A DNA stretch of 64,000 nucleotides from an uncultured Bacilli bacterium (GTDB lineage Bacteria > Bacillota_I > Bacilli_A > RF39 > UBA660). The notes under the pieces were generated by a model. The model had not been told where the DNA came from, did not search any database, and saw nothing but the letters and a program-made list of their open reading frames with translations. The number at the start of each line of letters is the position of its first letter. Position 1 is the stretch's first letter. Shown piece after piece: positions 5,293-28,704 of this stretch. Location of the stretch: the NCBI GenBank assembly GCA_934131695.1, contig CAKOZV010000001.1, positions 10,060 through 74,059 on the forward strand. Reading direction: 5' to 3'. Made by a program: the position numbers and the translations under genes.

Positions 5293-5324
5293 ACCCGCAT
5301 AAAATAAGGAATTGCGGGTTTTTC
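5293..5324 (+). terminator. secA terminator
   Basis: 7-bp stem acccgca/tgcgggt (5293-5299 / 5313-5319) followed by TTTTT. Confidence 0.7.
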
Positions 5325-10014: not shown

Positions 10015-10087
10015 CTGTGTGGCTCAGGAAAAAAATATAAAAATTGTTGTGGTAAATAAGCTCGCAAGTCTGCATAAAATAAGGAAT
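10015..10087 (+). repeat. Degenerate non-coding copy (copy 3) of the secA 3' end plus downstream sequence
   Basis: ctgtgtggctcaggaaaaaaatataaaaattgttgtggtaaataagctcgcaagtctgcataaaataaggaat aligns with secA 5240-5312 at roughly 85% identity, including the sequence after the stop codon. It would read CGSGKKYKNCCGK*. Confidence 0.8.
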
Positions 10088-12868: not shown

Positions 12869-13002
12869 GGGGCTGTCGAGAAATTAGTAAGATAACTAAT
12901 TTACGATAATCCCCTTTTTTAATTTTCCTTTTAAAATAAAGAAATTAAATTATACAAAAAGAGGCTTTTGGCAAAATTATACAATTTTGCGACAGCCCCT
13001 TT
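12869..13002 (+). repeat. IR-L: 134-bp inverted repeat, left arm
   Basis: Its reverse complement matches 17021-17154 at 133/134 positions, by manual alignment. Internally it is two hairpins: ggggctgtcgagaaattagt...actaatttacgataatcccc+T6 and gaggcttttggcaaaatt...aattttgcgacagcccc+T5. Both ends carry the motif GGGGCTGTCGNNAAATT in inverted orientation. Confidence 0.9.
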
Positions 13003-13058: not shown

Positions 13059-14171
13059 ATGTACAATAATGATAATTTTGAGAAGTTAAAAAAAAGAATA
13101 GATAAATGTAGAAATTGTTATATTCAAGGACCAACAGGACCTAAAGGAGAAAAGGGAGATACTGGAGATAGAGGAATACAAGGACCTACTACTATAGAAG
13201 TAGGTATTACAGAAACAGTAGAGTCACATCAAGAAGCTAAAGTAGAAAATATTGGTACCAATGAAGATGTAGTTTTAAGATTTAGAATACCAAAAGGGGA
13301 GCAAGGGATAGAGGGAAAAATAGGACCCCAAGGAATTCCCGGACCTAAAGGAGATAAAGGAGATATTGGACCCCAAGGAATAAAAGGTGAAAAAGGAGAT
13401 CAAGGACCAGCCACTATTCAAATTGGAAATGTTGAAACAGTTGATCCGACAAAAGATGCTGAAGTTGTAAATACTGGTACACCTGTTGATGTAGTTTTAG
13501 ATTTTAAAATACCAAAGGGAGAGAAAGGCGACCAAGGAGAAATGGGACCTAGGGGATTACCAGGAGAAATAGGAAGAACAGAACATATAGCTATTGATGA
13601 GACAGAAACTTTAGAACCAGGTGAACCAGCTCAAGTTATGGATACTTTTGAAAACTGGGTACATCATTTAGCATTTTTAATTCCAAAAGGTGAAAAAGGT
13701 GCTACGGGAGAAAGAGGTCCACAAGGACCAGCCGGACCACCAGGAACAGAATTTGTATCTTCTTATGGGATTAGATATTCAATGTCTACTACTCCACTTG
13801 CTTTACTTCAAGGAACAGATAATATTATTCCTTTACCTGAAAAAGGAGCAGCTTTTCTTACCGAATATCCAGATGGTAATTCAATTAAAATAAAAGAAAA
13901 TGGAGTTTATCTCATATCTTATTCATTATGTGGTGCTACCAATGAAGAATGTTCTTTAACTATGTCAGTAAGAGCTAATGATATATTACAACCAGCAACA
14001 AATCTTACTAGTGAGTTTCAAGCACAAATAATTAATTCTATAAGTTCATCTACCATTGTAGCACTAAGTAAAGATGATTTAATAACATTAAATGTAAAAC
14101 CATCTATGGCAGTTAACATAACGTTTAATGGAAGTACTAATGCGATATTAAGTGTTGTAAAAATACATTAA
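13059..14171 (+). CDS. Collagen-like triple-helix repeat protein with a C-terminal BclA/C1q-like globular domain
   Basis: Four Gly-X-Y blocks of about 7, 13, 7 and 7 triplets (GPTGPKGEKGDTGDRGIQGPT etc.). They alternate with three roughly 35-aa modules ending (F/L)xIPKGE(K/Q)G (TIEVGITETVESHQEAKVENIGTNEDVVLRFRIPKGEQG and variants). The C-terminal roughly 140 aa is beta-rich (ENGVYLISYSL...AILSVVKIH). AGGAGG RBS and no signal peptide. Confidence 0.85.
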   Translation: MYNNDNFEKLKKRIDKCRNCYIQGPTGPKGEKGDTGDRGIQGPTTIEVGITETVESHQEAKVENIGTNEDVVLRFRIPKGEQGIEGKIGPQGIPGPKGDKGDIGPQGIKGEKGDQGPATIQIGNVETVDPTKDAEVVNTGTPVDVVLDFKIPKGEKGDQGEMGPRGLPGEIGRTEHIAIDETETLEPGEPAQVMDTFENWVHHLAFLIPKGEKGATGERGPQGPAGPPGTEFVSSYGIRYSMSTTPLALLQGTDNIIPLPEKGAAFLTEYPDGNSIKIKENGVYLISYSLCGATNEECSLTMSVRANDILQPATNLTSEFQAQIINSISSSTIVALSKDDLITLNVKPSMAVNITFNGSTNAILSVVKIH

Positions 14172-14217: not shown

Positions 14218-16095
14218 ATGGTAAAGGAAAGTGATAATATGGAAATAATTAATAATAATACAGTGGTAGTAACTAATAGTGAAGAATTAAAAGATGTACT
14301 AAGTAATACAAATGATTATAATTATGTATATTTAGGTAATGATATAACTTTAACGAGTGGATTTAAAATAAATGCTAATAAAACAAAAGTAACTATTGAT
14401 GGTACATATAATAATATTAAAGCAACCTATACAAATAATTTAACTGATAGTACAGATGTTATAACGGTTAGTACTACGAATAAAAGAATTATACTTAAAA
14501 ATATGAATATAGTTAGTTCCCATACCTATAGCGTAGTTTATGTACCATCTCATCCTAATTATTCTAACTTAACTGTTGAGTATAATAATATTAATTTTAA
14601 TGGTATAGAACTATCTAATAATTACTATGGTTCAACAAAGATTATGGATTCTATTATAACTGTCAGTGATACAAATGGTGTAACTGCTCAAAAAGTATGT
14701 GATTCTAATAGAATAATAATAGGTGGAAATACAACAATTACAAGTAATTCCACTACCAACACAGTATTCTTCTTTAATGATGTAATACCATCTTATATTA
14801 AAATAGTACCCAATAGTAATGTAAATATCACAACTAATAAAGAATTAATGAATGGTACTAATCGACTTGATTTAATAGTAGGACATGGAGCAGAATTCCT
14901 TTTAACTACTGGAAATGGTTTTGCTATCACAACAACACATGGAGCTAGGAATGTCATAATTGAACAAATGGCTAATTTTACTTTTATAGAAAAGAGCCAT
15001 CAACGAGTCCCTATGTGGAATGTATTTGGTGATTTTAAAGTTTTAGAAGGAGCTAGTATATCAGTACTAAATACTTATATGACTACTCCAACTGATAATT
15101 ATAATATCTATTTTAAAGGTACAAACCAAAAATTTATATTAGATAATCCTAAATATGTGAATATCTATACTAAAAATGCCAATGTAGTATATGCCAATAA
15201 TTCTGTTGATTTTTCCTTTAAATTTTCAAGGATTAATATGTGGATTTATGCTCTAGATTATACAAGTGCTTGTACACTAGATGACCAACCTGCATTTTTC
15301 TGGTATAAAGAAAATACTCCTGCTGAAATAACTGGCTCTTTTAGTAAAGATACTACTACAGTTACATCTCACAATTTTACAGATAGTGAATTAAGCTCAA
15401 TATCAGATATAACTAGTTTTAAATTTCAAGGTATAAAGATATTAACTTTAGGACAATTAAAAACTAATGTACATCCAGTCCTCAATTCTACCAATACCAT
15501 ATCAGGTCATACCACACCATATGCTAATGTAAAAATAGAATATGATAGTAAAAACTTACTAGCAACTGCTGATGAAAATGGTTTATTTGAAGCTGATCTT
15601 GATACTACTATTCCTGATAATACAAGAATTAAAATAATATCTTGTTTAAATAGTTGTTATACCGAAAGAAAAGTGACAGTACCATTTAGTGGAGAATTAA
15701 CCCTTTTAAGAGTAACAGAGAATATTCCTTTTAGTATGAATCCGTCATCTATTAAACCACTTATTTTACCTAAAAAGAATCAAACAATAGTAACAGTAGT
15801 TGATAGTAGAATAAATAGTAGTAAGTGGAAACTATATTTAAACTATACAAATCCAATGATAGAAAAAGAGGGAAAAGTATTAATAGATTCATTAGTCTTT
15901 AAAAAGTTTGATAATGAGGAGATTATTTTAAAGACTAATAAGAAACTAATATATGAATCAAGTGATAATGGTGGAAATATAAGTGTAAGTAATGTTACTT
16001 TTTCTACGGATAAAGGATTATTACTTAAACCGAGTAAAGATTTATTAGAAGATGAGGATTATTCTACATTAATAATTTGGAGTGTAGAGGAGTAA
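14218..16095 (+). CDS. Large Asn/Thr-rich protein, probable right-handed beta-helix (adhesin or pectate-lyase-like fold)
   Basis: 625 aa. The likely start is ATG 14239 (MEIINNNTVVVTNSEELKDVL). Repetitive N/T/I/V-rich strand pattern (NITLTSGFKINANKTKVTIDGT...). No signal peptide. The fold is an inference only. Confidence 0.45.
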   Translation: MVKESDNMEIINNNTVVVTNSEELKDVLSNTNDYNYVYLGNDITLTSGFKINANKTKVTIDGTYNNIKATYTNNLTDSTDVITVSTTNKRIILKNMNIVSSHTYSVVYVPSHPNYSNLTVEYNNINFNGIELSNNYYGSTKIMDSIITVSDTNGVTAQKVCDSNRIIIGGNTTITSNSTTNTVFFFNDVIPSYIKIVPNSNVNITTNKELMNGTNRLDLIVGHGAEFLLTTGNGFAITTTHGARNVIIEQMANFTFIEKSHQRVPMWNVFGDFKVLEGASISVLNTYMTTPTDNYNIYFKGTNQKFILDNPKYVNIYTKNANVVYANNSVDFSFKFSRINMWIYALDYTSACTLDDQPAFFWYKENTPAEITGSFSKDTTTVTSHNFTDSELSSISDITSFKFQGIKILTLGQLKTNVHPVLNSTNTISGHTTPYANVKIEYDSKNLLATADENGLFEADLDTTIPDNTRIKIISCLNSCYTERKVTVPFSGELTLLRVTENIPFSMNPSSIKPLILPKKNQTIVTVVDSRINSSKWKLYLNYTNPMIEKEGKVLIDSLVFKKFDNEEIILKTNKKLIYESSDNGGNISVSNVTFSTDKGLLLKPSKDLLEDEDYSTLIIWSVEE

Positions 16096-16149
16096 TGCTT
16101 TTTCCAAATATTAAATTGATTCATAAAATATTGCGTAATGAGGTGAAAT

Positions 16150-16491
16150 ATGAAAAATGATTATATTTATATTAAACTTTATAATAATAAAGAAGTAAAA
16201 TTAAATGTTAAATTAAAGGATAAATGTAATAAGGTGGTTTTTGAAGGTAAAACTGATAATTTAGGAAGAATTAAAATACCAATATGTAACAATGAACTTT
16301 ATAATCTAATAATATATTCTAATTTAACAGTTATCAAAGTATCTTTAATCGCTAAAAAGAATAGAGTCTATCATATAAATATTAATAATAAAAGCAATGG
16401 TAAACTCATTACAATTTTACTAATGGATAAGAATTATCCTAATATAAAAATAGAAGGAGGTAAAATGACATTATGGCAAGACAGACAATAA
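16150..16491 (+). CDS. Small protein with a carboxypeptidase-regulatory/prealbumin-like beta-sandwich signature
   Basis: 113 aa. KVVFEGKTDNLGRIKIP resembles the CarboxypepD_reg-type motif. GAGGTGA RBS. Confidence 0.4.
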   Translation: MKNDYIYIKLYNNKEVKLNVKLKDKCNKVVFEGKTDNLGRIKIPICNNELYNLIIYSNLTVIKVSLIAKKNRVYHININNKSNGKLITILLMDKNYPNIKIEGGKMTLWQDRQ

Positions 16492-17018
16492 ACATAACAA
16501 ATGGTAAAGGAAGTATTGAGTTAGTTAATGGAAATTATAATGCTACAGCAGTAGTTGGAGGATATGATTCTTCAACTCTTACTCCAACTAGTGTAAATGT
16601 GGTAGATGGTGTTGATACATATGCTTTTACTATAAGTGCTACAGGAACTTTAACTCTTCATGTGACTGATACAGGTGATCCTGATACTGGTGTTGATATT
16701 GTTGGTGCAAAGTTTATAAGAACTGATAGTACAGGGGCAATAGTTGGAACAGAAGCTGTTACTAATCAAGATGGTAATGCCGTATTTAATAATGTTCCTT
16801 TCGCTGCAACTGGAAGTAATCCAATATATTACAAACAAATAGCAGGAGATGGAGGACATACATTTGATGATGGTGTTAAATCAATTACTATGACTGTAGA
16901 AACCCAAACTGTAGAAATAACAAATCCTCAAGCTCCACTTAGAAACTTTACATTAATGGATGAAAGCTATCCAAATATACCAATTATAGATGGACAAATA
17001 ATACTTCAAGATAATTAA
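16473..17018 (+). CDS. Ig-like/prealbumin-fold (Cna-B/SdrD-B-like) protein
   Basis: 181 aa. LTLHVTDTGDPDTGVDIVGAKFIRTDSTGAIVGTEAVTNQDGNAVFNNVPF is typical of Cna-B/SpaA-type beta-sandwich repeats. Overlaps the previous ORF by 19 nt. No signal peptide. Confidence 0.45.
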   Translation: MARQTINITNGKGSIELVNGNYNATAVVGGYDSSTLTPTSVNVVDGVDTYAFTISATGTLTLHVTDTGDPDTGVDIVGAKFIRTDSTGAIVGTEAVTNQDGNAVFNNVPFAATGSNPIYYKQIAGDGGHTFDDGVKSITMTVETQTVEITNPQAPLRNFTLMDESYPNIPIIDGQIILQDN

Positions 17019-17020
17019 TG

Positions 17021-17154
17021 AAAGGGGCTGTCGCAAAATTGTATAATTTTGCCAAAAGCCTCTTTTTGTATAATTTAATTTCTTTATTTTAAAAGGAAAA
17101 TTAAAAAAGGGGATTATCGTAAATTAGTTAGCTTACTAATTTCTCGACAGCCCC
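17021..17154 (-). repeat. IR-R: 134-bp inverted repeat, right arm
   Basis: Reverse complement of 12869-13002 with one mismatch (IR-L aagAtaac versus aagCtaac). Starts 2 nt after the stop codon of the 16473 gene and ends 7 nt before the jet promoter -35. Confidence 0.9.
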
Positions 17155-17161
17155 TTTTTTG

Positions 17162-17190
17162 TTTACAAGTAGCTACTCATATGTTAAAAT
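17162..17190 (+). promoter_or_regulatory. Candidate sigma-A promoter of the jet operon
   Basis: TTTACA (17162-17167), 17-bp spacer, TAAAAT (17185-17190) preceded by TGT (extended -10). Lies 30 nt upstream of jetA. Confidence 0.45.
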
Positions 17191-17219
17191 AACGAAGAAA
17201 AGAAGAAAGCAGGTAGTTT

Positions 17220-18686
17220 ATGGAAAATAAGTCTTTAGAACAAATAGATGAAGTAAAATATTTAGCTCAAGAAAATACTCCTCGATATAGGCTTATAATG
17301 AAATATTTATTTAATAAATATGAAGAAGCAGAGTACTGGCTATATAAAGAAGAAATATATACTGAGGTAAAAAAAACAATAACTGATTATACTGAAGAAG
17401 AATGTGATAGGGATTTAGAATTTTTACTAAATAATGGTTCTTTAACTAAACTACAAGATACCCAAAATATTAATACAATCAGTGACTTTAAGTTTCATAA
17501 CTTTCGTTATCAAATGACTGATAAAGCCGTAATAATAGAAAGAATGACTATAGAGCTAGAAGAAATAGAGGTAAAAGTAGCATCATTAGAGCCAAGATTA
17601 TTTGAAAGAATTAATAACCTAATTAAAAGACTTACTGATATTTATAATCTAGATGAGAATCAAATATATGAATTATGGATAGATATAAATAATGACTTTA
17701 AAAGCTTGAATGAACATTATCAAGACTTTTTGAAAAAATTTCATGAGGCTAAAACTGAAGAACTACTACAAAGTGAAGCATTTTTAGAATTTAAAAGTAG
17801 TGTAATAAATTATATTAATGATTTTATTAATAGTTATATAAAAAATTCTACATCAATAAAAAACTATTTAATAGAGATTGATGATAAAAAGACAAAATAT
17901 CTAATGGATAGTCTTATTTCCCATCAGAAAAAAGCACCTAAGATATCACCAGAATTTGATTATGAAAAATTAAGAAAAGTAAACTATGGAAAATGGCAAA
18001 GCCTTAAGAAATGGTTTGTTTCATCTACTACCCAGAGTGAAGGAGAACGTCTATTAGAAGCAACACAAAATATTATTCAAAAAATATACAAATATGCCAG
18101 TTCATTAATAGAATTACATGGAAATATGATTAATAGGAAAGAAGAGTATAAACATATTTGTCATTTATTTGATAATTTAGAAACAGTTGAAGATGCAAGT
18201 AAATTATCATCAGCAATATTTGGAATAACTGTAGCTAATCATTATAAAATGTCATCAATGATTAATACTGATTCCTTAATTAAAAGTTATGATGTACCAC
18301 CAATTGAAGTACCAATAAATACAACTATTAAAGAATATAAAATTAAAAGTCAAAATTCACAGATTGTTGATAAATCAATGGAAAAGGAACGTATCTTAGA
18401 AGAGATAAGACAAAATGAAAAAATTAGAAAAGAAAAGATTAGAAATTTAATAAAATCAGGTAAAATAGTTTTAGAAAAAGAGATATATTTGGATGAAATT
18501 GAAAGAAGATATGTATTAGGTCTAATTGAAAAAGCAAAAAAAGAGTCAAATAAAGAATCAGAATTTGGCTATTCATACTATATAACTAATGAAACTAAAG
18601 AAAAATGTAAGATAATCTCTAAAGATGGAATATTTGAGTTATTAGGTAGAACGATAGTGATTGAAGTGGGTGAAGATAATGAATAA
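17220..18686 (+). CDS. jetA: Wadjet JetA (TIGR02677/DUF2397-like, kleisin-like subunit)
   Basis: 488 aa. First gene of four overlapping genes whose sizes and order match the TIGR02677-02680 cassette. The N-terminus YLAQENTPRYRLIMKYLFNKY resembles the family's conserved start. Assigned by context plus recollection. Confidence 0.7.
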   Translation: MENKSLEQIDEVKYLAQENTPRYRLIMKYLFNKYEEAEYWLYKEEIYTEVKKTITDYTEEECDRDLEFLLNNGSLTKLQDTQNINTISDFKFHNFRYQMTDKAVIIERMTIELEEIEVKVASLEPRLFERINNLIKRLTDIYNLDENQIYELWIDINNDFKSLNEHYQDFLKKFHEAKTEELLQSEAFLEFKSSVINYINDFINSYIKNSTSIKNYLIEIDDKKTKYLMDSLISHQKKAPKISPEFDYEKLRKVNYGKWQSLKKWFVSSTTQSEGERLLEATQNIIQKIYKYASSLIELHGNMINRKEEYKHICHLFDNLETVEDASKLSSAIFGITVANHYKMSSMINTDSLIKSYDVPPIEVPINTTIKEYKIKSQNSQIVDKSMEKERILEEIRQNEKIRKEKIRNLIKSGKIVLEKEIYLDEIERRYVLGLIEKAKKESNKESEFGYSYYITNETKEKCKIISKDGIFELLGRTIVIEVGEDNE

Positions 18687-19869
18687 TGATATAGAAAAAG
18701 AAATGAAAGCCCTATTATATAACTTTTGGATAACAAAAGATAAAGATAAAGAACTGTATTATCAGATAAAGAATAATCAAAATAAAATGAAAGAATTTAT
18801 TTCTAAAAACTTAGGTAGTAATTTAATAATTCATGATAGATTTATAAAATTAGAAAAGATTCCAACAATAGTTAAATCTAATGCTAAACTAAATAATTTT
18901 TATTCAGTATTAGAATACGTAATCTTAACAATAATGTTATTATTTCTTGAAGATAAGACAAGAGGAGACTATTTTGTTCTATCTGATTTAATCGAATATG
19001 TAAAAAACACTTCAATAACTTTAGAATTAAACCATATACCCGATTGGAATAAAGTTCAAGATAGAAGATGCTTATCAAATGTAATATCATTATTAGAAGA
19101 ATTACAAATTATAAAGGTAAAAGACTCGTCTAAAGTATCATTCATCGAAAGTACAGAAGCAGAAACACTATATGAGTCGTTAGGAACGTCTAATTATTTG
19201 ATGAGAATGTTTGATGATAATATAAATGAATTAACAACACCAGAAGATTTTATCAAAAGTGAATTTGCTACTCAAGATGAAGAAAAAGGGGATATAAGAA
19301 GATATAAAGTATTTAGAAATATCTTATATACACCAGCAGTATCTTCTAAAGATTTATCAATACCTGAACTAGATTATATAAAGAAAAACCGCAATTATAT
19401 AAAATCAGAAATAGATAAGAACTTAAATATGGAAGTAGAAATAACCCATAATTTAGCTATATTATATGATGAAGAAAGTAATACCCAGAAAGATAACTTT
19501 CCTAATAGTAAAAAACTTACAGAAATTGTATTAATGGTAAATGAAAAATTATTACAAGAGATAAATGCTAATAAAATAGTGTTAGATAATCATGAAATAG
19601 CTACTATAAAAGAAGATTACTTTGAAAATATAATAAAAGACATAAAGAAGACAAAAGCACCATATATAGGAAAAACCTTATTAAGAGAAACAGACAAGAA
19701 ATTTTATGACATGATATTAGAATATATGGAAAAGTATAACATTATAGAAAAAAATAATGATGAGATAATAATTTATCCAACAGTAGCTAGATTAGTAGGC
19801 AAGGCAAAGGTTATAGAAAAAGATACAGCAAAGCAAACAAGTTTATTTGGAGGTAGTAATGAATTATAA
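18661..19869 (+). CDS. jetB: Wadjet JetB (TIGR02678/DUF2398-like, KITE-like subunit)
   Basis: 402 aa. The probable start is ATG 18679, which overlaps the jetA stop (ATGAATAA). Position and size fit JetB, but no catalytic motifs can confirm it. Confidence 0.65.
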   Translation: MKWVKIMNNDIEKEMKALLYNFWITKDKDKELYYQIKNNQNKMKEFISKNLGSNLIIHDRFIKLEKIPTIVKSNAKLNNFYSVLEYVILTIMLLFLEDKTRGDYFVLSDLIEYVKNTSITLELNHIPDWNKVQDRRCLSNVISLLEELQIIKVKDSSKVSFIESTEAETLYESLGTSNYLMRMFDDNINELTTPEDFIKSEFATQDEEKGDIRRYKVFRNILYTPAVSSKDLSIPELDYIKKNRNYIKSEIDKNLNMEVEITHNLAILYDEESNTQKDNFPNSKKLTEIVLMVNEKLLQEINANKIVLDNHEIATIKEDYFENIIKDIKKTKAPYIGKTLLRETDKKFYDMILEYMEKYNIIEKNNDEIIIYPTVARLVGKAKVIEKDTAKQTSLFGGSNEL

Positions 19870-22800
19870 AGTAACAAAAATAGGATTATTAAACTTTTGG
19901 TATTTTGACGATGAAGAATTTAATTTCTTTGATGGAAAACTATTATTAAGAGGTGGAAATGGTAGTGGTAAATCAGTAACTATGCAGTCATTTATCCCTT
20001 TGATATTAGATGGTAATAAAACACCATCTAGACTGGATCCGTTTGGTACTAAAGAAAAAAGAATAGAAGACTATTTATTAGGACCATCTGATGGAGAACA
20101 AAAAGATGATGCTATTGGCTATCTTTACATGGAAACATATAATGAAGAAAAAGATAAATATATAACAATCGGAATGGGACTTCACGCAAGAAAAGGAAGA
20201 TCAACTGATTTTTGGGGTTTTGCTTTAAAAGATGGAAAGAGAATAGGAAAAGACTTTGAACTTTATAAAAGTTATAGCAATAAAGTATTAATGACTAAAA
20301 AAGAATTAAAGGCAAATATTGGTGTAGATAATGCCTTTGTAGAAACAACTAAAGAATATAAAAGTTTAGTAAACGACTTATTATTTGGATTTAAAGATTT
20401 AGACTCATATGATGAATTTATAAATGTGTTACTACAATTAAGAAGTTCTAAATTATCAAAAGAATATAATCCTGTCAAACTAATGTCTATATTAAGTAGT
20501 GTTCTTCAACCACTAACAGATGATGATATAAGACCACTATCTGAAGCTATTGAAGATACTAATAAGACAAAAGAGAAGATAGATACATTAAATAATAATT
20601 TAAAAGACTTATCAAATATATCTAAGTCATATCAAAATTATAATGAGATAAATTTATATAACAAAGCTAAAATAGTAAAAGATAGCCAAGAAAGAATTGA
20701 ACTTTTAACTAAAGAATTAGAAACTAAAGAAACAAATATTAAAGGTATAAACAATAGACTAAAGGAAATAGATGAAAGTATTAATTATCTAGAACAAGAA
20801 TCAGTAGAAATAACAACAAAGTTAGCAAGTATTGATAATAAAGACTTAAAAGATTATACCGAAAAATTAAATGAGTTAAAAATAGATATTGAAAAAGTAA
20901 AAACTTCAATAGATAATATTAAACAAAAGCTAGAAAGAAATATAGATAGAGAAAGAAAATGTCAAAATGATATTGAAAAAATAGATGACAAAATATATCA
21001 AAAAGAAAAAGCAATAACAAGTATTAAAGAAGATATAGCTTTATTAAGTGAAGAGATAAAAATATCAGATATAAATATAGGTATAAAGAATAAAGAAATA
21101 AATTTTGATTACTTAGAAGATAGAATATTAAAGTATAAGAATAGGTTAAATCAGATAAAGATAAAGTTAGAAGAAAAGGAGAATCTTGAAAATTCATTAA
21201 GTAAGCTAGAAGAAGAAAACGAAATAGCTAAGAAGGAACTAGAAGAAAAAGAAGATGAAAGAAAAAATGATATCAAAAGATTAAATGAAGAAATAGATAA
21301 TTTTAAAGATGAAGTAAATAAAATAGATAAACAAAGTAAGGTAGTAAAACTTGGTGAAGATAGAAAAAGAAAGATATTTGACTTAATAAATAATTATAAT
21401 GTAGAAAACTATATAGTAGCCAAAGAAGAATATCAAACAGAAATAAGCTATTATGAAACGATGGTTATTACTGAAAAGAGTAATATTGAAAATAAAATAA
21501 CTAATGAAAAGAAAGAGTTAAATAGTTTAAAAGAAGAATTAAGAGTATTAGAAGAAACTGACGAATTAGAATATGTTGAAGAAGAACTAACTAAAGAATC
21601 AGAAATATTACTAAAAGAGGCAAACATACCATTTACTACATTATATAAAGTAATAGAATTTAAAGATAATATTAAGGAAGAAGAAAAAAATAAATTAGAA
21701 GAGTTATTGATATCTTTAAATATTTTAAATGCTAAATTAGTACCAGCTAAGTATTTTAATGATATTAAAAATATTAAGTCAGTATTTCTAAAGAAAGGTA
21801 CACCAAAGAAAAATAATATATTAACCTACTTTAATGTTATAGATAATAGTGTTATATCTAAACAGGAAATAACAGATATTTTATCTAGTATAAGTGTAGA
21901 TAAAAGTGATGAATTCTATATAAATGCAGATAACTATGAATATGACTTTTTATTAGGTTATCCATCATCAAAATATCAAAGTAAATATATTGGAATAACT
22001 AAAAGACAAGAAGAACATAAAAGACAAATTAGTTTAAAAGAAGAAGAAATATTAGAAAAAGAAAAAATATTAAATAATTATCAAAATATATTATTATCAA
22101 TAAATGATAAATTAGATGATATTAAAAAAGTAGCAACTATGTTTCCTAATAGTAAAAACTTAGAAGAGATAAATACGGCTATAACCAAAATAACAACTTC
22201 TATAGATTTAATATTTGAACGAAGTAAAAAGCTAACTGAAGAAGCTAATAAAATAAATAATGATATTAAGGTTAAAATAGAAGAAATAAATAAAATCAAA
22301 GAAAATATTAATGTTCCTTTAAACTTATCAAGTTATAAAAAGGCTTTAGCTCTAACTGATGAATTAACTAAAAACGTAATTACATTAAAAAATAATATTG
22401 AAACACAAAATTCTTATAATGAACAAAAATTAAGTAAAGAAATATCGTTAGAAAATGCAAAAGAAGAAATAGAATATCAAAATGGAGAACTATCAGATAA
22501 AACTAAGATATTAGGAGAATTATCAAGTAAAAAGAAAGCTATAGATGAAATATTAGAAAATCCTGATTATAAAAAACAAATAGAAGAGATAAAAAGATTA
22601 ACTGAAAGAGCAAAAAAGATACCTGATGAAAATAATGCATTAAGAGAAGAAAAAGGAAAATTAGAAAATAGCTTAGAAAACTTAAATGTTTTGCTAGATA
22701 CAAATAAAAGTAATTTAGAGAAAGAAAAATTAAAGCTGGATTTAAGAAATAATATCTTAGAAAAAGAATATAGTTTAAATTATGTTTATAAAGATGAAGA

Positions 22801-23911
22801 ATTAAATGCAGATAAAATTATATTAGATTTAAAAAGTAGAGAGAATAGTGACATTAAAAGAGCCTTTGAAAACTACTTTATTGCTTTCAACAATCATAAA
22901 CAAAATCTACTTGATTATAGATTGACTAGTAAAGAAATATTTGCAAGTAAGGAAGAATTAAGAGAAGAATTTTTAGAAAAAGGTTTAGAAAAAGCTGAGA
23001 TTGAAGAAATACTAGATTTAATGCCTAGACAAGATTTAGAAACAACTTATCAAGGTAAAAAGTTAAATATCTATGAATTAACAGATTGCTTAAAAGAGAC
23101 TATAAAAGAAAGTGAAAATTATATAAGTACTCAAGAAAGACATTTATTTGAAGATATTTTATTAAAAACAGTAGGTAATAAAATAAGAGATAAGATAGAA
23201 TCATCTAAAGAATGGGTAAAGAAAATAAATACAATAATGAAAGAAACTCAAATAGATAGTAATTTATCTTTTGAACTAGAATGGAGAAGTAAAACAGCTT
23301 TTACAGAAGATGAACTAGATACCAAAGAATTAGTTAGATTATTTAAAATAGATGCTGGCCAGTTGAATCCCAAGGATAGTGAAAAATTAATCACTCATTT
23401 TCGTAGTCAAATAAAGAAAGAATTAGAATTTAATGAAAAGATAAATGATAGTTATTCAAATATAATATTTAAAGTATTAGATTATAGAAATTGGTTTGAA
23501 TTTAAATTGTACTATAGAAGAAAATCTGGTGAAAAGAAAGAATTAACTAATAAAGTCTTCTCAATACTAAGTGGTGGAGAAAGAGCTAAAAGTATGTATG
23601 TTCCATTATTTGCAGCTGTTTATGCTAAACTACTAAATGCTAAAAAATTATCATTGAGATTAATAGCTCTTGATGAAGCTTTTGCAGGAGTAGACAACAG
23701 TAACATTAGAGAAATGTTTGATATTTTAGCTCAGTTAAATCTTGATTATATTTTAACGTCTCAATCATTATGGGGTGATTATGACACAGTAAGAGAACTA
23801 TCAATATGTGAACTTATAAAGGATGAAATACATAAAGCTGTAGCAGTTCGTCATTATCGTTGGAATGGGCATTCTAAAGAGATATTAGAAAAAAGTGATG
23901 TATATGAATAA
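19847..23911 (+). CDS. jetC: Wadjet JetC (TIGR02680-like SMC-family ATPase)
   Basis: About 1350 aa. The probable start is ATG 19859, with a GGAGG RBS. N-terminal head: IGLLNFWYFDDEEFNFFDGKLLLRGGNGSGKS (Walker A). The roughly 900-aa K/E/N-rich middle is coiled-coil. C-terminal head: LSGGERAKSMYVPLFAAVYA (signature) and LRLIALDEAFAGVD (Walker B). Confidence 0.85.
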   Translation: MEVVMNYKVTKIGLLNFWYFDDEEFNFFDGKLLLRGGNGSGKSVTMQSFIPLILDGNKTPSRLDPFGTKEKRIEDYLLGPSDGEQKDDAIGYLYMETYNEEKDKYITIGMGLHARKGRSTDFWGFALKDGKRIGKDFELYKSYSNKVLMTKKELKANIGVDNAFVETTKEYKSLVNDLLFGFKDLDSYDEFINVLLQLRSSKLSKEYNPVKLMSILSSVLQPLTDDDIRPLSEAIEDTNKTKEKIDTLNNNLKDLSNISKSYQNYNEINLYNKAKIVKDSQERIELLTKELETKETNIKGINNRLKEIDESINYLEQESVEITTKLASIDNKDLKDYTEKLNELKIDIEKVKTSIDNIKQKLERNIDRERKCQNDIEKIDDKIYQKEKAITSIKEDIALLSEEIKISDINIGIKNKEINFDYLEDRILKYKNRLNQIKIKLEEKENLENSLSKLEEENEIAKKELEEKEDERKNDIKRLNEEIDNFKDEVNKIDKQSKVVKLGEDRKRKIFDLINNYNVENYIVAKEEYQTEISYYETMVITEKSNIENKITNEKKELNSLKEELRVLEETDELEYVEEELTKESEILLKEANIPFTTLYKVIEFKDNIKEEEKNKLEELLISLNILNAKLVPAKYFNDIKNIKSVFLKKGTPKKNNILTYFNVIDNSVISKQEITDILSSISVDKSDEFYINADNYEYDFLLGYPSSKYQSKYIGITKRQEEHKRQISLKEEEILEKEKILNNYQNILLSINDKLDDIKKVATMFPNSKNLEEINTAITKITTSIDLIFERSKKLTEEANKINNDIKVKIEEINKIKENINVPLNLSSYKKALALTDELTKNVITLKNNIETQNSYNEQKLSKEISLENAKEEIEYQNGELSDKTKILGELSSKKKAIDEILENPDYKKQIEEIKRLTERAKKIPDENNALREEKGKLENSLENLNVLLDTNKSNLEKEKLKLDLRNNILEKEYSLNYVYKDEELNADKIILDLKSRENSDIKRAFENYFIAFNNHKQNLLDYRLTSKEIFASKEELREEFLEKGLEKAEIEEILDLMPRQDLETTYQGKKLNIYELTDCLKETIKESENYISTQERHLFEDILLKTVGNKIRDKIESSKEWVKKINTIMKETQIDSNLSFELEWRSKTAFTEDELDTKELVRLFKIDAGQLNPKDSEKLITHFRSQIKKELEFNEKINDSYSNIIFKVLDYRNWFEFKLYYRRKSGEKKELTNKVFSILSGGERAKSMYVPLFAAVYAKLLNAKKLSLRLIALDEAFAGVDNSNIREMFDILAQLNLDYILTSQSLWGDYDTVRELSICELIKDEIHKAVAVRHYRWNGHSKEILEKSDVYE

Positions 23912-25148
23912 TGTAAATAAAGAATTAGCAAACTATTTAAAGTCAAAAAAAGGCTTAACAAGATTAATGAACAAATTAAAAGAAAAATATATATCGCTTT
24001 CTAGACCTAGTGGTACTGTTGTACTTAATAATCTAACAGAAATAGAAAGTATAGATATAAGTAATTTACTAGGTAAAAGAATTAATAAGGAAAAATTAAA
24101 AACTTCTTTTAAGGAAATAACTAAGAAAATAAATGAAGGAAAATACAGTGATTTCACTTGGAGAGAATTACTAAACTACTACTTTAATGAGAATATAGTA
24201 ACTAAGGAAGAAGAAAAGTTCAATAAAAAGCAGGAAGAAGTAGAATTTTATAAAAAGTTATTTGAAGAAAATAATAATAAAAAGTATATAAAAACTATAA
24301 AGGATATAATTATAAATGATGAAATAATTAGTAAAATAATTAAACAAAAATATCATAAGAATAAGATTACTCTACAAGAAGAACTTAACAATATACTATT
24401 GTTATTAGATAATATTCCGGAATATCCTACCTCTTTAGCAGTTTATGCATCATTAACAGGTAATCCACATTATTTAGATTTAAATAAAACCACAAGTACT
24501 TTATTTCTTAAGATATTATCAAAGATAAAGAATATAGAATATAAGGAAAAGTTAGAATCAAAAATAAATATACTATCAGAGATAAATGTTTATATTGATC
24601 CTATATCTAATTTTGTAATAACTTACAAGTTAACAGGAAATTCCATATTAAATGAACTAGCTAAAAATAATGAAGTAGTTAACTTAAATTTATTAAATAT
24701 AAATAAACTAAGTAAAGTAGATACAAATAATAAAATAGTATATGTCTTTGAAAATCCATCTTTACTAACCTCATTAATTGATTTAAATGTTCCAATAGTA
24801 ATTACATCTGGAATTCCCAATATATCCTTATATACATTATTAAAAAAATTAGAGGAAAGTAATACTAAAATATATTATAATGGTGATTTTGATCCAGAAG
24901 GATTATTAATAGCAGAAAAGTTAAAACAAAGATTTCCTAATATAGAATTATTTTGCTATAGTGATATAGATTATAATAACGCTAAATCAAAAGAAAAAAT
25001 CTCTAATAGCAGGTTGAAAAAATTAGATAATATTAATTCAAAGGAATTACAAGAAATAAAAAATATAATACTAGAAAATAAAGTATCAGCATATCAAGAA
25101 CAAAATCTAGATAGAATTAGAAAATATATTGAAAAATCTAAACTTTAA
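23895..25148 (+). CDS. jetD: Wadjet JetD (TIGR02679/DUF2399-like, Toprim nuclease subunit)
   Basis: About 415 aa. Overlaps the jetC end. The C-terminal region VYVFENPSLLTSLID...VITSGIPNISLYTLLKKL...IYYNGDFDPEGLLIAEKLK matches the Toprim-like DUF2399 pattern (conserved E, and DxD in GDFD). Confidence 0.8.
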   Translation: MMYMNNVNKELANYLKSKKGLTRLMNKLKEKYISLSRPSGTVVLNNLTEIESIDISNLLGKRINKEKLKTSFKEITKKINEGKYSDFTWRELLNYYFNENIVTKEEEKFNKKQEEVEFYKKLFEENNNKKYIKTIKDIIINDEIISKIIKQKYHKNKITLQEELNNILLLLDNIPEYPTSLAVYASLTGNPHYLDLNKTTSTLFLKILSKIKNIEYKEKLESKINILSEINVYIDPISNFVITYKLTGNSILNELAKNNEVVNLNLLNINKLSKVDTNNKIVYVFENPSLLTSLIDLNVPIVITSGIPNISLYTLLKKLEESNTKIYYNGDFDPEGLLIAEKLKQRFPNIELFCYSDIDYNNAKSKEKISNSRLKKLDNINSKELQEIKNIILENKVSAYQEQNLDRIRKYIEKSKL

Positions 25149-25666
25149 TGATGGAGGTAATTATGGACTATATTATAAGAAAAATGAATAAAAATGATTG
25201 CTTTTCTGTAGCAAAAATAGTAACAACTGCATGGAATGAAACTTATAGAGGTATAGTAAATGATGAATTTTTAGATAATCTTTATTTAAATGAACAAGAA
25301 AGAGCAAATAATTTCTATAAAGAATTTGATAAGAATATTAATCATCAATATGTTCTTGAAATAAATAATGAGATAGTAGGGTTTATTAATGTAGATGTAT
25401 CTGATGATGCTGAATATAATGATTGTGGAGAGTTGTATGCTTTATATTTGATAAATGATTATAAGGGACAGGGTTATGGTAGAAAGCTATTTGCTATGGC
25501 AATTAAAGAATTAAAAAATATGGGATTTACAAAAATGATAGTAGGTTGTTTAGTAGCTAATCCTACAAATGAATTTTATAGACATATGGGTGGAAAATTA
25601 ATAAAACAAAGAGTATTTGAAAAACTAAAACTACCTGAAAATGTATATTTGTTTGAAGAAATATAA
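25148..25666 (+). CDS. GNAT family N-acetyltransferase appended to the jet operon
   Basis: Motif A LYLINDYKGQGYGRKLFAMAIKELK. ATG 25148 overlaps the jetD stop (TAATG). The better start is ATG 25163, 6 nt after GGAGG. No terminator lies between jetD and this gene. Confidence 0.8.
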   Translation: MMEVIMDYIIRKMNKNDCFSVAKIVTTAWNETYRGIVNDEFLDNLYLNEQERANNFYKEFDKNINHQYVLEINNEIVGFINVDVSDDAEYNDCGELYALYLINDYKGQGYGRKLFAMAIKELKNMGFTKMIVGCLVANPTNEFYRHMGGKLIKQRVFEKLKLPENVYLFEEI

Positions 25667-25676
25667 TTATAAAAAT

Positions 25677-25708
25677 GATACATAGCTTATAAAATATGTA
25701 TCGTTTTT
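25677..25708 (+). terminator. Terminator closing the jet-GNAT transcription unit
   Basis: Stem gatacata/tatgtatc (25677-25684 / 25695-25702) followed by GTTTTT. Confidence 0.7.
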
Positions 25709-25857
25709 GCTTTTTTTCTAAGATAAAATAAAAAAATAACTTGTGATAAAAAAGAAAATATTATATAATTATTATGCCATTTATACATATAAATGGTTCT
25801 TTTAAAGTATATTAGTGTATTGAGTTATTTTTTATATATATAGATTGGGGGAATAAA

Positions 25858-26388
25858 ATGGAACAAGAAATTTTAGAAAATTTAAGATTAGATATAGAAG
25901 ATGTAAAAGAAATAATTAGATCAAACTTTGAGGAAATGCAAGAATTAGAAAAAAATCCTAAAGTTAAAAGATATATTCATTTATTGCATTTAAAAGAAGA
26001 GTTAGAAAATGGTTTGAACTTAAAGAGTGATAAAGAAATTGCAATTCATGAACTTGGAAAATATACGCAAGGTGTTATACAAGAAACTAATGATATTTGG
26101 TTTTTAATTGGTAAATATACTTTAGAAGAATATTTAGATACTTTTGGTACTACTCCTAGTGTAAAAAATAATTTCTTATTATATGTCAATTTAGAAAATG
26201 AAAAAATGCATAACTGTATTACACCAGAAAAACAATTAGACTTTGAAAATGAACATACTGTTATTAAGACTAATAAAAAGAATGATTGGCAGGGATATTA
26301 TAAAATGAGAAATAAATTCTTTGTTGATTGTGTAAAAGAAGGAGAAACTACGGCATACCAAAAAGTATTAACAAAAACTAATGGCTAG
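25858..26388 (+). CDS. Hypothetical protein (176 aa)
   Basis: Good RBS (GGGGGAA). A TTGTGA-17-TATAAT promoter-like sequence lies about 90 nt upstream, and a hairpin with T-run follows at 26392-26411. No recognisable domain. Confidence 0.5.
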   Translation: MEQEILENLRLDIEDVKEIIRSNFEEMQELEKNPKVKRYIHLLHLKEELENGLNLKSDKEIAIHELGKYTQGVIQETNDIWFLIGKYTLEEYLDTFGTTPSVKNNFLLYVNLENEKMHNCITPEKQLDFENEHTVIKTNKKNDWQGYYKMRNKFFVDCVKEGETTAYQKVLTKTNG

Positions 26389-26478
26389 TGCAAATGACTA
26401 GTCATTTTTTTGATAAATTAATTAATTATTAGCTAAATATGTGCTATAGTATTTTTAGTAATATTTTGGAGGTTTAAA

Positions 26479-27408
26479 GTGCTAAAAGAAGTAGAAGAAA
26501 AATTAAAGAATATGGGATATGATGTTAAGTTATCTAAAGACAATATGTTAATAGTAACATTACTTAGTGAAACTACTGATAAAAAACAAATAGAAAGAAT
26601 CTTAGAATTAATGTCAGTTAGTACTATACAGGAAGGAAAATTTACTAAAGAAGAGTTAAAAGACTTAATAACCAATAGATACTCTAAAGGTTTAAGAAAA
26701 CTATTATGCTATTCATTTTTATCAAAAGAAGAGATTTTAGATTATTCCTTTATCTTGTCAAGAACAAATGATGATGTATTACTTAATTGTATGAGAGATG
26801 TTATGTGTAGCTCTAGTATTCATAAAAATAATGAGGTAGAAGAGTCACTAATAATACTAAAAAAGTCAAAAGAAAGTTATCAAAGAATAGCAGAACGAAA
26901 TATCTTATTAAATAGTGAGGCGATAAAAGAAGATATATCATTAGAACTAGCTAGTAAAGTTTTAAATAGTAGGGAAGAGTATCAAGCTAGAGGGATAAGT
27001 GAATTATTATATGATCAAGAAGAATTAAATAAAGAACAATTATTAACGGCAGCTGATTCTATTAATAGTTCTAAAAGTGAAAGACAAGTAAAGTTTATTG
27101 AAAAACTTGCTAAAGATGAATATTATAAAAGTACAGGACTATTACTACCTGCTCTAAGAATAATTGATGAAGTACAAGAAGACTTTCAGCTAGACTATTT
27201 AAAAAGAACAGTAGGAATTTGTAAAGAACCGATTATATTATTACCTTCTCTAAAACTTTATACACAAACAGAGACTAGAGAAGAATGTGATTTATTACAA
27301 AAAAGATTATCATCATTAAAGAAAGAAGATATAATAGCATCTCTTGGTAGTGATTTATCATTAGTATCAGCTACTGAGAAAGCTAAAGTAAAAGAAAAAA
27401 CAATCTAA
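26479..27408 (+). CDS. Hypothetical helical protein (309 aa)
   Basis: GTG start 6 nt after GGAGG. Predominantly helical, acidic composition. No recognisable domain. Confidence 0.5.
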   Translation: MLKEVEEKLKNMGYDVKLSKDNMLIVTLLSETTDKKQIERILELMSVSTIQEGKFTKEELKDLITNRYSKGLRKLLCYSFLSKEEILDYSFILSRTNDDVLLNCMRDVMCSSSIHKNNEVEESLIILKKSKESYQRIAERNILLNSEAIKEDISLELASKVLNSREEYQARGISELLYDQEELNKEQLLTAADSINSSKSERQVKFIEKLAKDEYYKSTGLLLPALRIIDEVQEDFQLDYLKRTVGICKEPIILLPSLKLYTQTETREECDLLQKRLSSLKKEDIIASLGSDLSLVSATEKAKVKEKTI

Positions 27409-27584
27409 TCACTTTGATTACATTGTTTTTTTGATACTTAACAGTATCATCTATATATAATGGGAATCTTCACTAAACTCGTGAACCCTTCCCACTAATA
27501 TATTATGCAGTAATTACTAATTTATACACATAATTGATTAATAAAAAATAATTTGTTAAAATGTGAATAGAAAGAGGGATTATT

Positions 27585-28704
27585 ATGGAACTATCAGAAT
27601 TAAAAAGAAATTATGAAAAGATTGATAAAAAATTAGCAGAACTTTGGAGGTTACTTTGACTGTGATAAGAAAGTAAAAGAAAAAGAAGAATTAGAAAAGA
27701 AACAACTAGAAGAAGGATTCTGGGATAATAAAGAATTAAGAGAAAGTGTTTTTTCTAAACTTAGCAACATAAATGCAATTTTAGAGAATATAATTTCATA
27801 TAAAGGAGATACTAAGAATGCTCTAGATTTAATAGAACTATTATCCCTAGAACCAGATAACGAATTAGAAGAGACATTAGTAAAAGATTATGATAAATTA
27901 AAAGAAGAAGTAGAACAATTTGAAATATACTTACTATTTGATAGTGAATATGATGCTAATTCTTGTACCATTGATATTCATTCAGGAGCTGGTGGAACAG
28001 AAGCTTGTGATTGGGCAGAAATGCTATATAGAATGTATCTAAGATACTGTGAAAGACAAGGCTATAAAGTAACATTATATAACTATCAAGCAGGAGAAGA
28101 AGCGGGTATTAAAAGTGTTTCTTTCAAAGTAGATGGTAGTTATGCTTATGGCTATTTAAAAGAAGAAAAAGGTGTTCATCGTCTAGTTAGGTTATCTCCA
28201 TTTGATTCTTCCAATAGACGCCATACATCATTTGCAAGTGTTGATGTTACTCCAGAAATAGATAAAAATATAGATATAAATATAGATGAAAAGGACATAA
28301 GAATAGATGTATATCGTTCAACTGGAGCAGGAGGTCAAGGAGTAAATACCACAGATAGTGCCGTAAGAGTAACTCATCTTCCTACTGGTATAGTAGTAAC
28401 TTGTCAGAATGAAAGAAGTCAAATTCAAAATAAAGAAACAGCTCTACAGGTTCTAAAGTCTAAACTTTATGTATTAGAACAACAAAAAAAGGAACAAGAA
28501 TTAGCTAAAGAAAAAGGAGAACAAATGAATATAGAGTTTGGTTCACAAATAAGAAGTTATGTAATGCACCCATATTCAATGGTAAAAGATCATAGAACAT
28601 CCTATGAGACAAGTAATGTAACTAAAGTTTTAGATGGAGACTTAACTCCATTTATGGAAGCATATTTGAAAGGAGCAAAGAATGAATCCCAAGGCAATTG
28701 TTAA
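27585..28704 (+). CDS. prfB: Peptide chain release factor 2, with programmed +1 frameshift
   Basis: Frame 0 runs from ATG 27585 to an in-frame TGA at 27657-27659 (MELSELKRNYEKIDKKLAELWRLL*). The +1 frame from 27658 is open and continuous with the listed ORF 28021-28704 (..DIHSGAGGTEACDWAEMLYRMY..; SPF and GGQ motifs present). Confidence 0.93.
27646..27660 (+). promoter_or_regulatory. RF2 autoregulatory +1 frameshift site
   Basis: GGAGG (27646-27650), 3-nt spacer TTA, then CTT TGA C (27654-27660). This is the same architecture as the classical prfB recoding signal. Confidence 0.9.

Follow-up and report, generated by a model that had tools for sequence, protein, structure and literature searches.

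The window analysed here is a 64,000-nt stretch of DNA from an uncultured Bacilli bacterium. Between secA and prfB, in a variable region to which a sequence-only reading had correctly assigned it, lies a run of four forward-strand genes, jetA to jetD. They are preceded by a 135-nt element and a promoter and followed by an acetyltransferase gene of the GNAT family (Table 1).

Table 1. Features of the jet locus (positions are those of the window; protein lengths follow the favoured starts).
Feature	Position	Strand	Length	Remarks
135-nt element	17022..17158	+		13-bp terminal inverted repeats (AAAGGGGCTGTCG...CGACAGCCCCTTT), then a T run
jet operon promoter, extended -10 type	17162..17190	+		TTTACA-17 nt-(TG)TTAAAAT; sequence read and consensus scan
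jetA	17220..18686	+	488 aa	type II kleisin
jetB	18679..19869	+	396 aa	type II KITE subunit, predicted tandem form; maximal ORF 18661-19869 (402 aa)
jetC	19859..23911	+	1350 aa	SMC-type ABC ATPase; maximal ORF 19847-23911 (1354 aa)
jetD	23904..25148	+	414 aa	Toprim (Top6A/Spo11-like) nuclease effector; maximal ORF 23895-25148 (417 aa)
GNAT acetyltransferase gene	25163..25666	+	167 aa	resident, not a Wadjet component; Pfam Acetyltransf_1, E=6.7e-15

Gene starts, coupling and promoter

The four frames of 488, 402, 1354 and 417 aa lie at the coordinates originally given for them and represent maximal open reading frames. Later starts, at 18679 (jetB), 19859 (jetC) and 23904 (jetD), agree better with the ribosome-binding sites and with gene calls made independently on metagenome contigs of identical sequence. 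The jetC ATG at 19859 has a GGAGGT ribosome-binding site 6 nt upstream; jetD has a weak ribosome-binding site and an uncertain exact start. The tight coupling proposed for these genes persists with the shorter frames, as jetA and jetB overlap by 8 nt, jetB and jetC by 11 nt, and jetC and jetD by 8 nt.

The TTTACA-17-TAAAAT promoter of the sequence-only reading is present, with a TGn extension of its -10 hexamer, and 29 nt separate its end from the jetA ATG. This AT-rich region shows no excess of promoter-like matches (76, with 91.8 expected in shuffled sequence), and conservation therefore carries the whole weight of the call. In most of six related loci, TTTACA-17-TGnTAnAAT is found at the same distance from jetA; JetA identity in this comparison extends down to about 56%, and more distant loci have variant hexamers. 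No intrinsic terminator was found after jetD, the sole terminator-like site being located at 26380-26406.

Protein families encoded by the operon

JetA matches Pfam DUF2397 over its full length (E=1.6e-96), TIGR02677 at 217 bits (cut-off 166) and the PADLOC model JetA2 (E=3.8e-128). Its residues 5-455 of 488 also align with the JetA chain of Neobacillus vireti (9qe0_E, E=7e-44). JetB scores 131 bits against TIGR02678 (cut-off 125) and matches both Pfam DUF2398 (E=1.7e-70) and PADLOC JetB2 (E=6.9e-93). Residues 9-332 of its 396 align with the N. vireti tandem KITE (9qe0_D, E=3e-38 to 4.6e-38), a match that covers positions 17-332 of the 389 in that chain and thus runs through lobe 1 (5-205) and well into lobe 2 (206-388). 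A comparison of the N and C halves of JetB with hhalign, using a 21-sequence alignment, gave an in-register, non-significant match (probability 2%). The earlier description of JetB as KITE-like holds for the family, but in type II systems one JetB chain holds a tandem KITE, with four winged-helix domains in all, in place of an ordinary KITE dimer (bioRxiv 10.1101/2025.03.10.642339).

JetC is matched by TIGR02680 at 646 bits (cut-off 463) across profile positions 2-1355 of 1356, by PADLOC JetC2 (E=0) and, over residues 5-1342, by N. vireti JetC (9qe0_A, E=2e-160). Pfam AAA_23 and SbcC_Walker_B also match the protein. The split ABC/SMC head noticed earlier is intact in all its motifs: in the 1350-aa numbering, Walker A (GGNGSGKS) is at 32 with K38, the signature motif (LSGGE) at 1237, and Walker B (LIALDEAF) at 1268 with D1272/E1273. 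Between the head halves lie about 920 residues in which E, K, I, L and N are abundant. This segment, first described as about 900 residues of coiled coil, probably includes a hinge, so that it is not coiled coil throughout.

JetD matches Pfam DUF3323 (E=1.9e-28) and DUF2399 (E=1.5e-24) as well as PADLOC JetD2 (E=8e-103). These models pass easily, while TIGR02679 reaches 132.7 bits, under its curated cut-off of 196. Of the profile searches suggested with the sequence-only reading, those with TIGR02677, TIGR02678 and TIGR02680 thus exceed their cut-offs and TIGR02679 falls below; DUF2397, DUF2398 and DUF2399 are all matched by the respective proteins, and the PADLOC matches of the four proteins range from E=7e-93 to 0. 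The Toprim-like module recognised in JetD is borne out by its motifs, FENPS at 282 and GDFDPEG at 327 (414-aa numbering), and by its predicted fold. A confident AlphaFold2 model (pLDDT 90.2) matches MksG (8b7f), Top6A (1d3y), Spo11 (8uru) and Pseudomonas aeruginosa JetD (7til) with a Foldseek probability of 1.00, and with the same probability 9o0g, with a Toprim plus CAP-like fold. Across 17 homologues, with identity down to 48%, residues E283, D328, D330 and E332 never vary. JetD shares with topoisomerase VI A and Spo11 a Toprim and CAP-like fold as well as acidic residues for metal binding (E283, D328 and D330 in JetD), at a sequence identity of just 12-16%. In contrast to Top6A and Spo11, proteins of the JetD type reportedly have no catalytic tyrosine (bioRxiv 10.1101/2025.03.10.642339). 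They act as JetABC-dependent hydrolytic nucleases.

The operon presents the type II family set: DUF2397/TIGR02677, DUF2398/TIGR02678, TIGR02680, and DUF3323 plus DUF2399/TIGR02679, the last under the TIGR cut-off. Profile, solved-structure and fold evidence thus support the earlier identification of a Wadjet JetABCD system with a kleisin, a KITE subunit, an SMC ATPase and a Toprim nuclease. Positions 17162-25148 most probably constitute an intact, self-promoted Wadjet operon of type II (probability about 0.93), to which plasmid restriction is assigned by homology.

A strain-variable cassette and its neighbours

jetABCD is an accessory, strain-variable cassette. In strains of the same species that lack it, nothing but a 350-nt spacer lies between orf181 and the GNAT gene; in the window, 8,120 nt (17026-25145) stand in place of this spacer. 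The jet-less strains encode an identical prfB product, and their flanks are 94-98% identical to those of the window. They also carry the GNAT gene, orf176 and orf309 in the same order, so these three genes, earlier taken as appended to the operon, are resident and not Wadjet accessories. As accessory candidates they were rejected, since sister strains have them without jetABCD and the more distant jet loci do not have them; none has a PADLOC match. The GNAT gene does not lie downstream of jetD in loci with JetD identity of 75% or less. In the window it starts 14 nt past the jetD stop, with a GGAGGT ribosome-binding site inside the gap, and read-through from the jet promoter probably reaches it, since no terminator lies between the two genes. 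In other loci, the place directly 3' of jetD is taken by genes for proteins of 520-660 aa with a C-terminal SEC-C motif, which could be a hitherto undescribed partner in some type II Wadjet systems.

The 135-nt element marks the left boundary of the strain-specific segment. Its predicted RNA fold is unusually stable (-46.4 kcal/mol, z=-6.2; none of 200 shuffles did as well). A second, inverted copy, 99% identical, is found at 12869-13002, and both copies are missing from jet-less strains. It is a probable terminator for the operon upstream, with an uncertain role in the cassette. No Rfam family matched it in a search of 16000-28200 in E-value mode. Six metagenome matches to the terminal repeats (with a 100-125 nt spacer) were rejected as members of the same family, having unrelated interiors and coming from unrelated organisms. 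The sole further likeness found is a partial 80% copy in another locus, L009. Neither a tRNA nor an integrase was found beside the cassette. Att-like repeats of the secA 3' end were observed.

A more elaborate account would have jetABCD, from promoter to stop, exchanged between strains as a precise 8.1-kb cassette in place of the 350-nt spacer, with the 135-nt element, whose inverted copy lies 4 kb upstream, active in its mobilisation or insulation, the GNAT gene captured as a fifth cistron because the cassette supplies its ribosome-binding site, and the SEC-C proteins as an accessory lead. We consider this account unlikely. Faster evolution or allelic exchange of the jet genes relative to their flanks was rejected, with dS to the related locus L008 of about 0.8 in the jet genes and 0.57-0.93 in flanking housekeeping genes. 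Because dS is similar in both, the higher divergence of the Jet proteins is attributed to weaker constraint. No close plasmid-borne JetD appeared in a plasmid database search; the homologues found there are distant (28-31% identity) and reside on plasmids of 149 kb to 1.08 Mb from Bacillus-like genera.

Metagenome-assembled genomes of gut Bacilli provide about 25 loci with the same order jetABCD, at JetD identities of 37-88%. Against three relatives, dN/dS is 0.08-0.17 in all four jet genes, and with the invariant catalytic residues this makes the system look functional. A genuine type II Wadjet might still be silent or inactive in this strain, as a recently acquired or decaying cassette. The operon is missing in 9 of the 10 distinct same-species contexts listed, and the ribosome-binding site at the jetD start is poor, as such a state could predict. 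This reading is nevertheless very improbable: the four frames are full length relative to their profiles, catalytic residues are intact, dN/dS is low, the promoter is conserved, and 16 contigs, drawn from several human-gut metagenome samples and from different cohorts, carry identical copies.

Related systems and a proposed mechanism

The closest characterised counterpart of the type II operon is nvJET-II from Neobacillus vireti LMG 21834 (PDB 9QE0/9QE1; Roisne-Hamelin, Liu & Gruber, bioRxiv 10.1101/2025.03.10.642339), whose four genes agree with those of the window in order and family. Sizes are close (488 aa in the window versus 500 aa for JetA, 396 versus 388-389 aa for JetB, and 1350 versus 1371 aa for JetC), whereas the sequences are distant and the coiled coil is weakly conserved. 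The hosts also differ, an uncultured gut Bacilli lineage with about 26% G+C versus a soil relative of Bacillus.

MukBEF and MksBEF condensins share the SMC-kleisin-KITE architecture, and an operon of this kind could instead fold or segregate the host chromosome, with no part in defence. JetB has a weak Pfam MksE match (residues 26-164, E=2.8e-4), JetC has weak SMC matches and a MukB match, and the hinge and dimer geometry of type II systems are MukBEF-like (bioRxiv 10.1101/2025.03.10.642339). These condensins, however, lack a nuclease subunit and are housekeeping systems that do not vary between strains, whereas the fourth gene of the operon overlaps jetC and encodes a Toprim nuclease with invariant catalytic residues under purifying selection. 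Absence of the operon from same-species strains fits poorly with housekeeping, and the homologous N. vireti system restricts plasmids (bioRxiv 10.1101/2025.03.10.642339). A chromosomal condensin is therefore a highly improbable reading.

Wadjet type I (Escherichia coli GF4-3, P. aeruginosa PA14, Bacillus cereus Q1) and Corynebacterium glutamicum MksBEFG follow the same logic, an SMC sensor with a Toprim nuclease directed against small circles. The JetD model matches the nucleases of both groups (PaJetD 7til and MksG 8b7f), but the protein families differ. In type I systems the SMC is smaller, the KITE subunits form a homodimer and the resting state is V-shaped, and JetD proteins of types I and II cannot replace each other (bioRxiv 10.1101/2025.03.10.642339). 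The sequence-only reading had named the operon type I, taking the TIGR02677/78/80/79 cassette to be that subtype; this cassette, with DUF2397/2398/2399, is that of type II, and the best PADLOC models are JetA2, JetB2, JetC2 and JetD2. A type I operon, with ordinary KITE dimers and a JetD-JetB interface of the type I kind, would have the same gene order and general architecture and could account for the weak matches to PADLOC JetC1 (9e-25 versus 0 for JetC2) and JetD1 (2e-4 versus 8e-103 for JetD2). It is scarcely credible here, as the type II models lead by 80 to more than 300 orders of magnitude and neither JetA1 nor JetB1 gave a match among the PADLOC models. In PDB sequence searches, JetA, JetB and JetC had solved relatives only among the type II chains of N. 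vireti in 9QE0/9QE1, matched at 1e-38 to 1e-160, and no type I JetA, JetB or JetC chain was matched at E<=0.01 to 1. The lengths of JetB (396 aa) and JetC (1350 aa) are likewise of type II size. The subtype call is based on the PADLOC labels and the solved type II structure.

A different SMC-like or ABC module of defence or repair (Lamassu LmuB, SbcCD/Rad50, RecN) sharing the head motifs alone has a negligible likelihood, as the Pfam SbcC_Walker_B and AAA_23 matches of JetC and its PADLOC LmuB match (E=1e-3, on a coiled-coil stretch only) concern generic head or coiled-coil segments, TIGR02680 and JetC2 match as full-length families, and the kleisin, KITE and JetD partners are present in canonical order, unlike in Lamassu with its LmuB plus LmuA effector and no kleisin or KITE.

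Returning to the type II Wadjet operon, its mechanism can be proposed by homology to the reconstituted N. vireti system. JetA as kleisin, JetB as one tandem-KITE subunit and JetC as dimeric SMC ABC ATPase would form a dimer of A1B1C2 motor units, which would load on DNA and extrude loops using ATP. On a small circle (tens of kb) extrusion would complete and then stall, whereupon JetD, a dimeric Toprim nuclease, would cleave the trapped DNA at a site that does not depend on sequence. Linear DNA would be spared, as would the long chromosome, and small plasmids would be destroyed on entry. Assembly, loop extrusion, circle sensing, metal dependence and plasmid restriction in this host are all inferred from relatives. 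The nvJET-II reaction requires ATP, JetABC, JetD and Mn2+ and cuts circular but not linear DNA, and the system restricts plasmids in Bacillus subtilis (bioRxiv 10.1101/2025.03.10.642339). A native clostridial Wadjet also restricts plasmids, and was compared in that study with type I B. cereus Q1 proteins (PMC12287153). Loop-extrusion sensing followed by JetD cleavage, as first suggested for the operon, is likely by homology to type II; the details cited for it came from type I, and for type II the mechanism is known from a single, distantly related, Mn2+-requiring reconstitution in which the JetD-JetABC interface is predicted, not solved.

The locus does not change the understanding of Wadjet, and PADLOC models from 2023 already recognise all four proteins. 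It adds a well-delimited, apparently functional type II system to a poorly studied, uncultured, AT-rich lineage of human-gut Bacilli, at a time when only one type II system has been studied biochemically. The natural presence/absence polymorphism, with its exact breakpoints at 17026 and 25145, allows a clean comparison, which could serve to ask whether gut strains with and without Wadjet differ in the plasmids they hold. Should the organism be brought into culture, plasmid-based genetics would predictably meet a barrier in this operon.

Subtype and protein identity of the jet operon

The sequence-only reading called the operon a Wadjet (JetABCD) defence system, and family, PADLOC and solved-structure matches bear it out. 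In the HMM comparison it had proposed, each of the four proteins matches its expected NCBIfam, Pfam and PADLOC families from end to end. JetA (TIGR02677, 217 bits, cut-off 166; DUF2397, E=1.6e-96), JetB (TIGR02678, 131 bits, cut-off 125; DUF2398, E=1.7e-70) and JetC (TIGR02680, 646 bits, cut-off 463; Pfam AAA_23 and SbcC_Walker_B) exceed their cut-offs. JetD scores 132.7 bits to TIGR02679, not reaching the cut-off of 196, and matches DUF3323 (E=1.9e-28) and DUF2399 (E=1.5e-24).

The proposed type I subtype did not hold. The best PADLOC models are JetA2 (E=3.8e-128), JetB2 (E=6.9e-93), JetC2 (E=0) and JetD2 (E=8e-103), and type I models give far lower scores or none. Among all PDB chains, JetA, JetB and JetC match essentially one complex, the JetABC of 9QE0/9QE1 (E-values 7e-44, 3e-38 and 2e-160, with the JetC alignment spanning residues 5-1342), which is the Wadjet type II complex of Neobacillus vireti (bioRxiv 10.1101/2025.03.10.642339). 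Type I is thereby excluded and, judged by its sequence, the operon is Wadjet type II. Several details change with the subtype. JetB of type II is a single tandem-KITE subunit, and the SMC protein is enlarged with a MukB-like hinge (bioRxiv 10.1101/2025.03.10.642339). Type II JetD docks differently from that of type I, with which it does not interchange, and cleavage by the sole type II system to have been reconstituted depends on Mn2+.

The motifs quoted earlier are all present, both in JetC (GGNGSGKS at 32, LSGGE at 1237, LIALDEAF at 1268) and in JetD (FENPS at 282, GDFDPEG at 327). A search of PDB chains found no sequence relative of JetD. The suggested structure prediction (AlphaFold2 on 17 homologues, pLDDT 90.2) agrees with the Toprim-like assignment, matching the folds of the Corynebacterium glutamicum MksG nuclease (8b7f), Top6A (1d3y), Spo11 (8uru) and Pseudomonas aeruginosa JetD (7til), each at a Foldseek probability of 1.00. 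All 17 homologues, without exception, have the Toprim residues E283, D328, D330 and E332.

Operon layout and the genes 3' of jetD

Features of the window and of related metagenome loci (L-numbers)
Feature	Position	Strand	Remark
secA	2798-5284
secA 3'-end direct repeats	5243-5312; 6254-6323; 10018-10087		identity 66% and 87%
135-nt element, copy 1	12869-13002	-	99% identical to copy 2
Collagen-repeat protein	13059-14171		BclA C-terminal domain (exosporium-type); internal GXX-coding repeats
135-nt element, copy 2	17021-17154	+	inverted relative to copy 1
jet promoter	17162-17190		TTTACA-17-TAAAAT
jetA	17220-18686	+	longest ORF, 488 aa
jetB	18661-19869	+	longest ORF, 402 aa; favoured start 18679 (396 aa)
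jetC	19847-23911	+	longest ORF, 1354 aa; favoured start 19859 (1350 aa)
jetD	23895-25148	+	longest ORF, 417 aa; favoured start 23904 (414 aa)
GNAT acetyltransferase	25163-25666		resident, kept without jetABCD
orf176	25858-26388		resident, kept without jetABCD
orf309	26479-27408		resident, kept without jetABCD
prfB	28021-28704		after frameshift
Short ORFs at metallophosphoesterase place	33151-33591; 33744-34139		146 aa; 131 aa
tmRNA	46664-47041		tag peptide GNKIKNVLANFGGNTSLAFA
tRNA-Thr(CGU)	54383-54458
Partial 135-nt element	L009:11723-11798		80%; downstream of jet locus
SEC-C proteins after jetD	L014:11231-12796; L022:7739-9700; L023:11218-15053; L025:11224-17024; L026:11222-13195; L027:11223-13160; L030:1660-3639; L036:11223-17203

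The four ORFs lie exactly where they were first placed. For jetB, jetC and jetD, ribosome-binding sites, together with genes called independently on metagenome contigs of identical sequence, favour later starts, which keep overlaps of 8, 11 and 8 nt between successive genes; GGAGGT stands 6 nt upstream of the favoured jetC start. The promoter was likewise recovered, with a TG-extended -10 besides. At ~26% G+C, the region yields no more promoter-like matches than its shuffled versions do (76 observed, 91.8 expected), so one match proves little. Of six related loci, with JetA identity down to ~56%, most nonetheless keep the arrangement TTTACA-17-TGnTAnAAT with unchanged spacing to jetA, the hexamers varying in the more distant of them.

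GNAT, orf176 and orf309 had been taken for genes appended to the cassette. Strains that lack jetABCD carry them too, in unchanged order, which rules them out as Wadjet accessories; orf176 and orf309 match no family in Pfam, NCBIfam or PADLOC. GNAT lacks its own 350-nt upstream region in the jet+ strain and starts 14 nt past the jetD stop. Because this gap holds a new GGAGGT ribosome-binding site and no terminator was found between jetD and 26380, GNAT is probably transcribed by read-through from the jet promoter, tying its expression to the operon.

Elsewhere, in two groups of type II Wadjet loci so divergent that JetD identity between them is only 38-39%, one to three tandem paralogues start within ~20-30 nt after jetD. 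These proteins measure 520-660 aa and carry a SEC-C metal-binding motif at the C-terminus. No recognisable domain was found beyond the C-terminal motif, nor any meaningful PADLOC or NCBIfam match, and they are absent from the window. They may serve some type II systems as an accessory not yet described, or be simply a clade-specific neighbour.

The secA-prfB locus and its history

The operon lies, as the sequence-only reading had it, between secA and prfB, in a variable stretch of ~22 kb. Among contigs encoding an identical prfB product, jetABCD is missing in nine of the ten distinct contexts shown. Three of these (L039, L042, L046) carry, in order, a BclA-like gene, a 618-aa gene, orf113, orf181, a 350-nt spacer, GNAT, orf176, orf309 and prfB. 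Nucleotide alignment with the jet-less strains places the breakpoints at 17025/17026 and 25145/25146, with flanks 94-98% identical. Since nucleotide comparison finds nothing in the window that corresponds to the spacer, the 8,120-nt segment between the breakpoints (135-nt element, promoter and jetABCD) takes the spacer's place. The segment looks like one swapped in by cassette exchange via flanking homology; no integrase, transposase or tRNA was found near it.

The two copies of the 135-nt element flank a 4-kb BclA-like/orf625/orf113/orf181 cluster. The element has 13-bp terminal inverted repeats (AAAGGGGCTGTCG...CGACAGCCCCTTT), three interior hairpins and a trailing T run; its RNA fold reaches -46.4 kcal/mol (z=-6.2), and it matches no Rfam family. 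Jet-less strains of the same species have neither copy, and ordinary terminators of short length stand in their places. The element may represent a MITE-like terminator cassette, or its copies may be arms flanking a segment that can invert or move.

The whole interval (5285-27700, compared with L038-L046, the contigs sharing the prfB product) is highly variable. Choloylglycine (bile-salt) hydrolase, methyltransferases, NUDIX, DUF2238, YjcQ, RhuM-like, KilA-N, several GNATs and a BclA-like collagen cluster occur in combinations that differ by strain. The last ~40 nt of secA (SEC-C motif CGSGKKYKQCCGK) and ~30 nt downstream are repeated directly inside the region, with similar extra copies in strains L040 and L041. 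These repeats look like att-type scars of stacked islands, left by successive integrations at the 3' end of secA. The genome's relatives bear the label uncultured Bacilli or Tenericutes, and the BclA-type protein would be unexpected if the lineage is non-sporulating. At the place of the two short ORFs, the L038-L046 strains shown have a single metallophosphoesterase gene (Pfam Metallophos, 329-330 aa); in the jet+ strain this gene seems to have been split or put out of action. The tmRNA and tRNA-Thr genes are not adjacent to the cassette.

Conservation speaks for a working operon. The jetABCD order recurs, with JetD identity of 37-88%, in ~25 loci of metagenome-assembled genomes from the gut that carry the labels uncultured Bacilli or Tenericutes, Candidatus Onthousia and Candidatus Ventrenecus. 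All four genes show dN/dS of 0.08-0.17 against three relatives. Their synonymous divergence between the window and the related locus L008 (~0.8) is the same as that of the adjacent prfB, yitT, ftsE and ftsX (0.57-0.93), which fits long co-residence at the site and not recent transfer. Accelerated evolution or allelic exchange of the jet genes was dropped on the same comparison.

Alternatives, predicted action and meaning

A housekeeping MksBEF-like condensin is unlikely, given the conserved nuclease gene and the absence of the operon from sister strains. That the type II operon is silent or decaying in this strain is very improbable, as frames and motifs are intact, selection is purifying and the promoter is conserved. 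The presence of dedicated kleisin, KITE and JetD partners excludes Lamassu, SbcCD and RecN.

By homology to nvJET-II, the N. vireti complex, JetA1B1C2 motor units of this type II system would dimerise via the JetA N-terminus and extrude DNA while hydrolysing ATP. When the DNA is a small circle, JetABC would stall and in that state permit cleavage by JetD at random positions, and long or linear DNA would be left uncut. In vitro, type II cleaves circular, not linear, DNA and requires ATP, JetABC and JetD; restriction in vivo fades at about 50 kb and beyond.

Wadjet systems are present in about 5% of bacterial species. PADLOC 2023 models already recognise the window operon outright, and NCBI's annotation pipeline names JetD relatives 'TIGR02679 domain-containing protein'; by sequence the operon is a member of the already known type II. 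What it offers is a second type II example, a divergent one, from an uncultured gut lineage in which the natural presence/absence polymorphism of jetABCD is clean.
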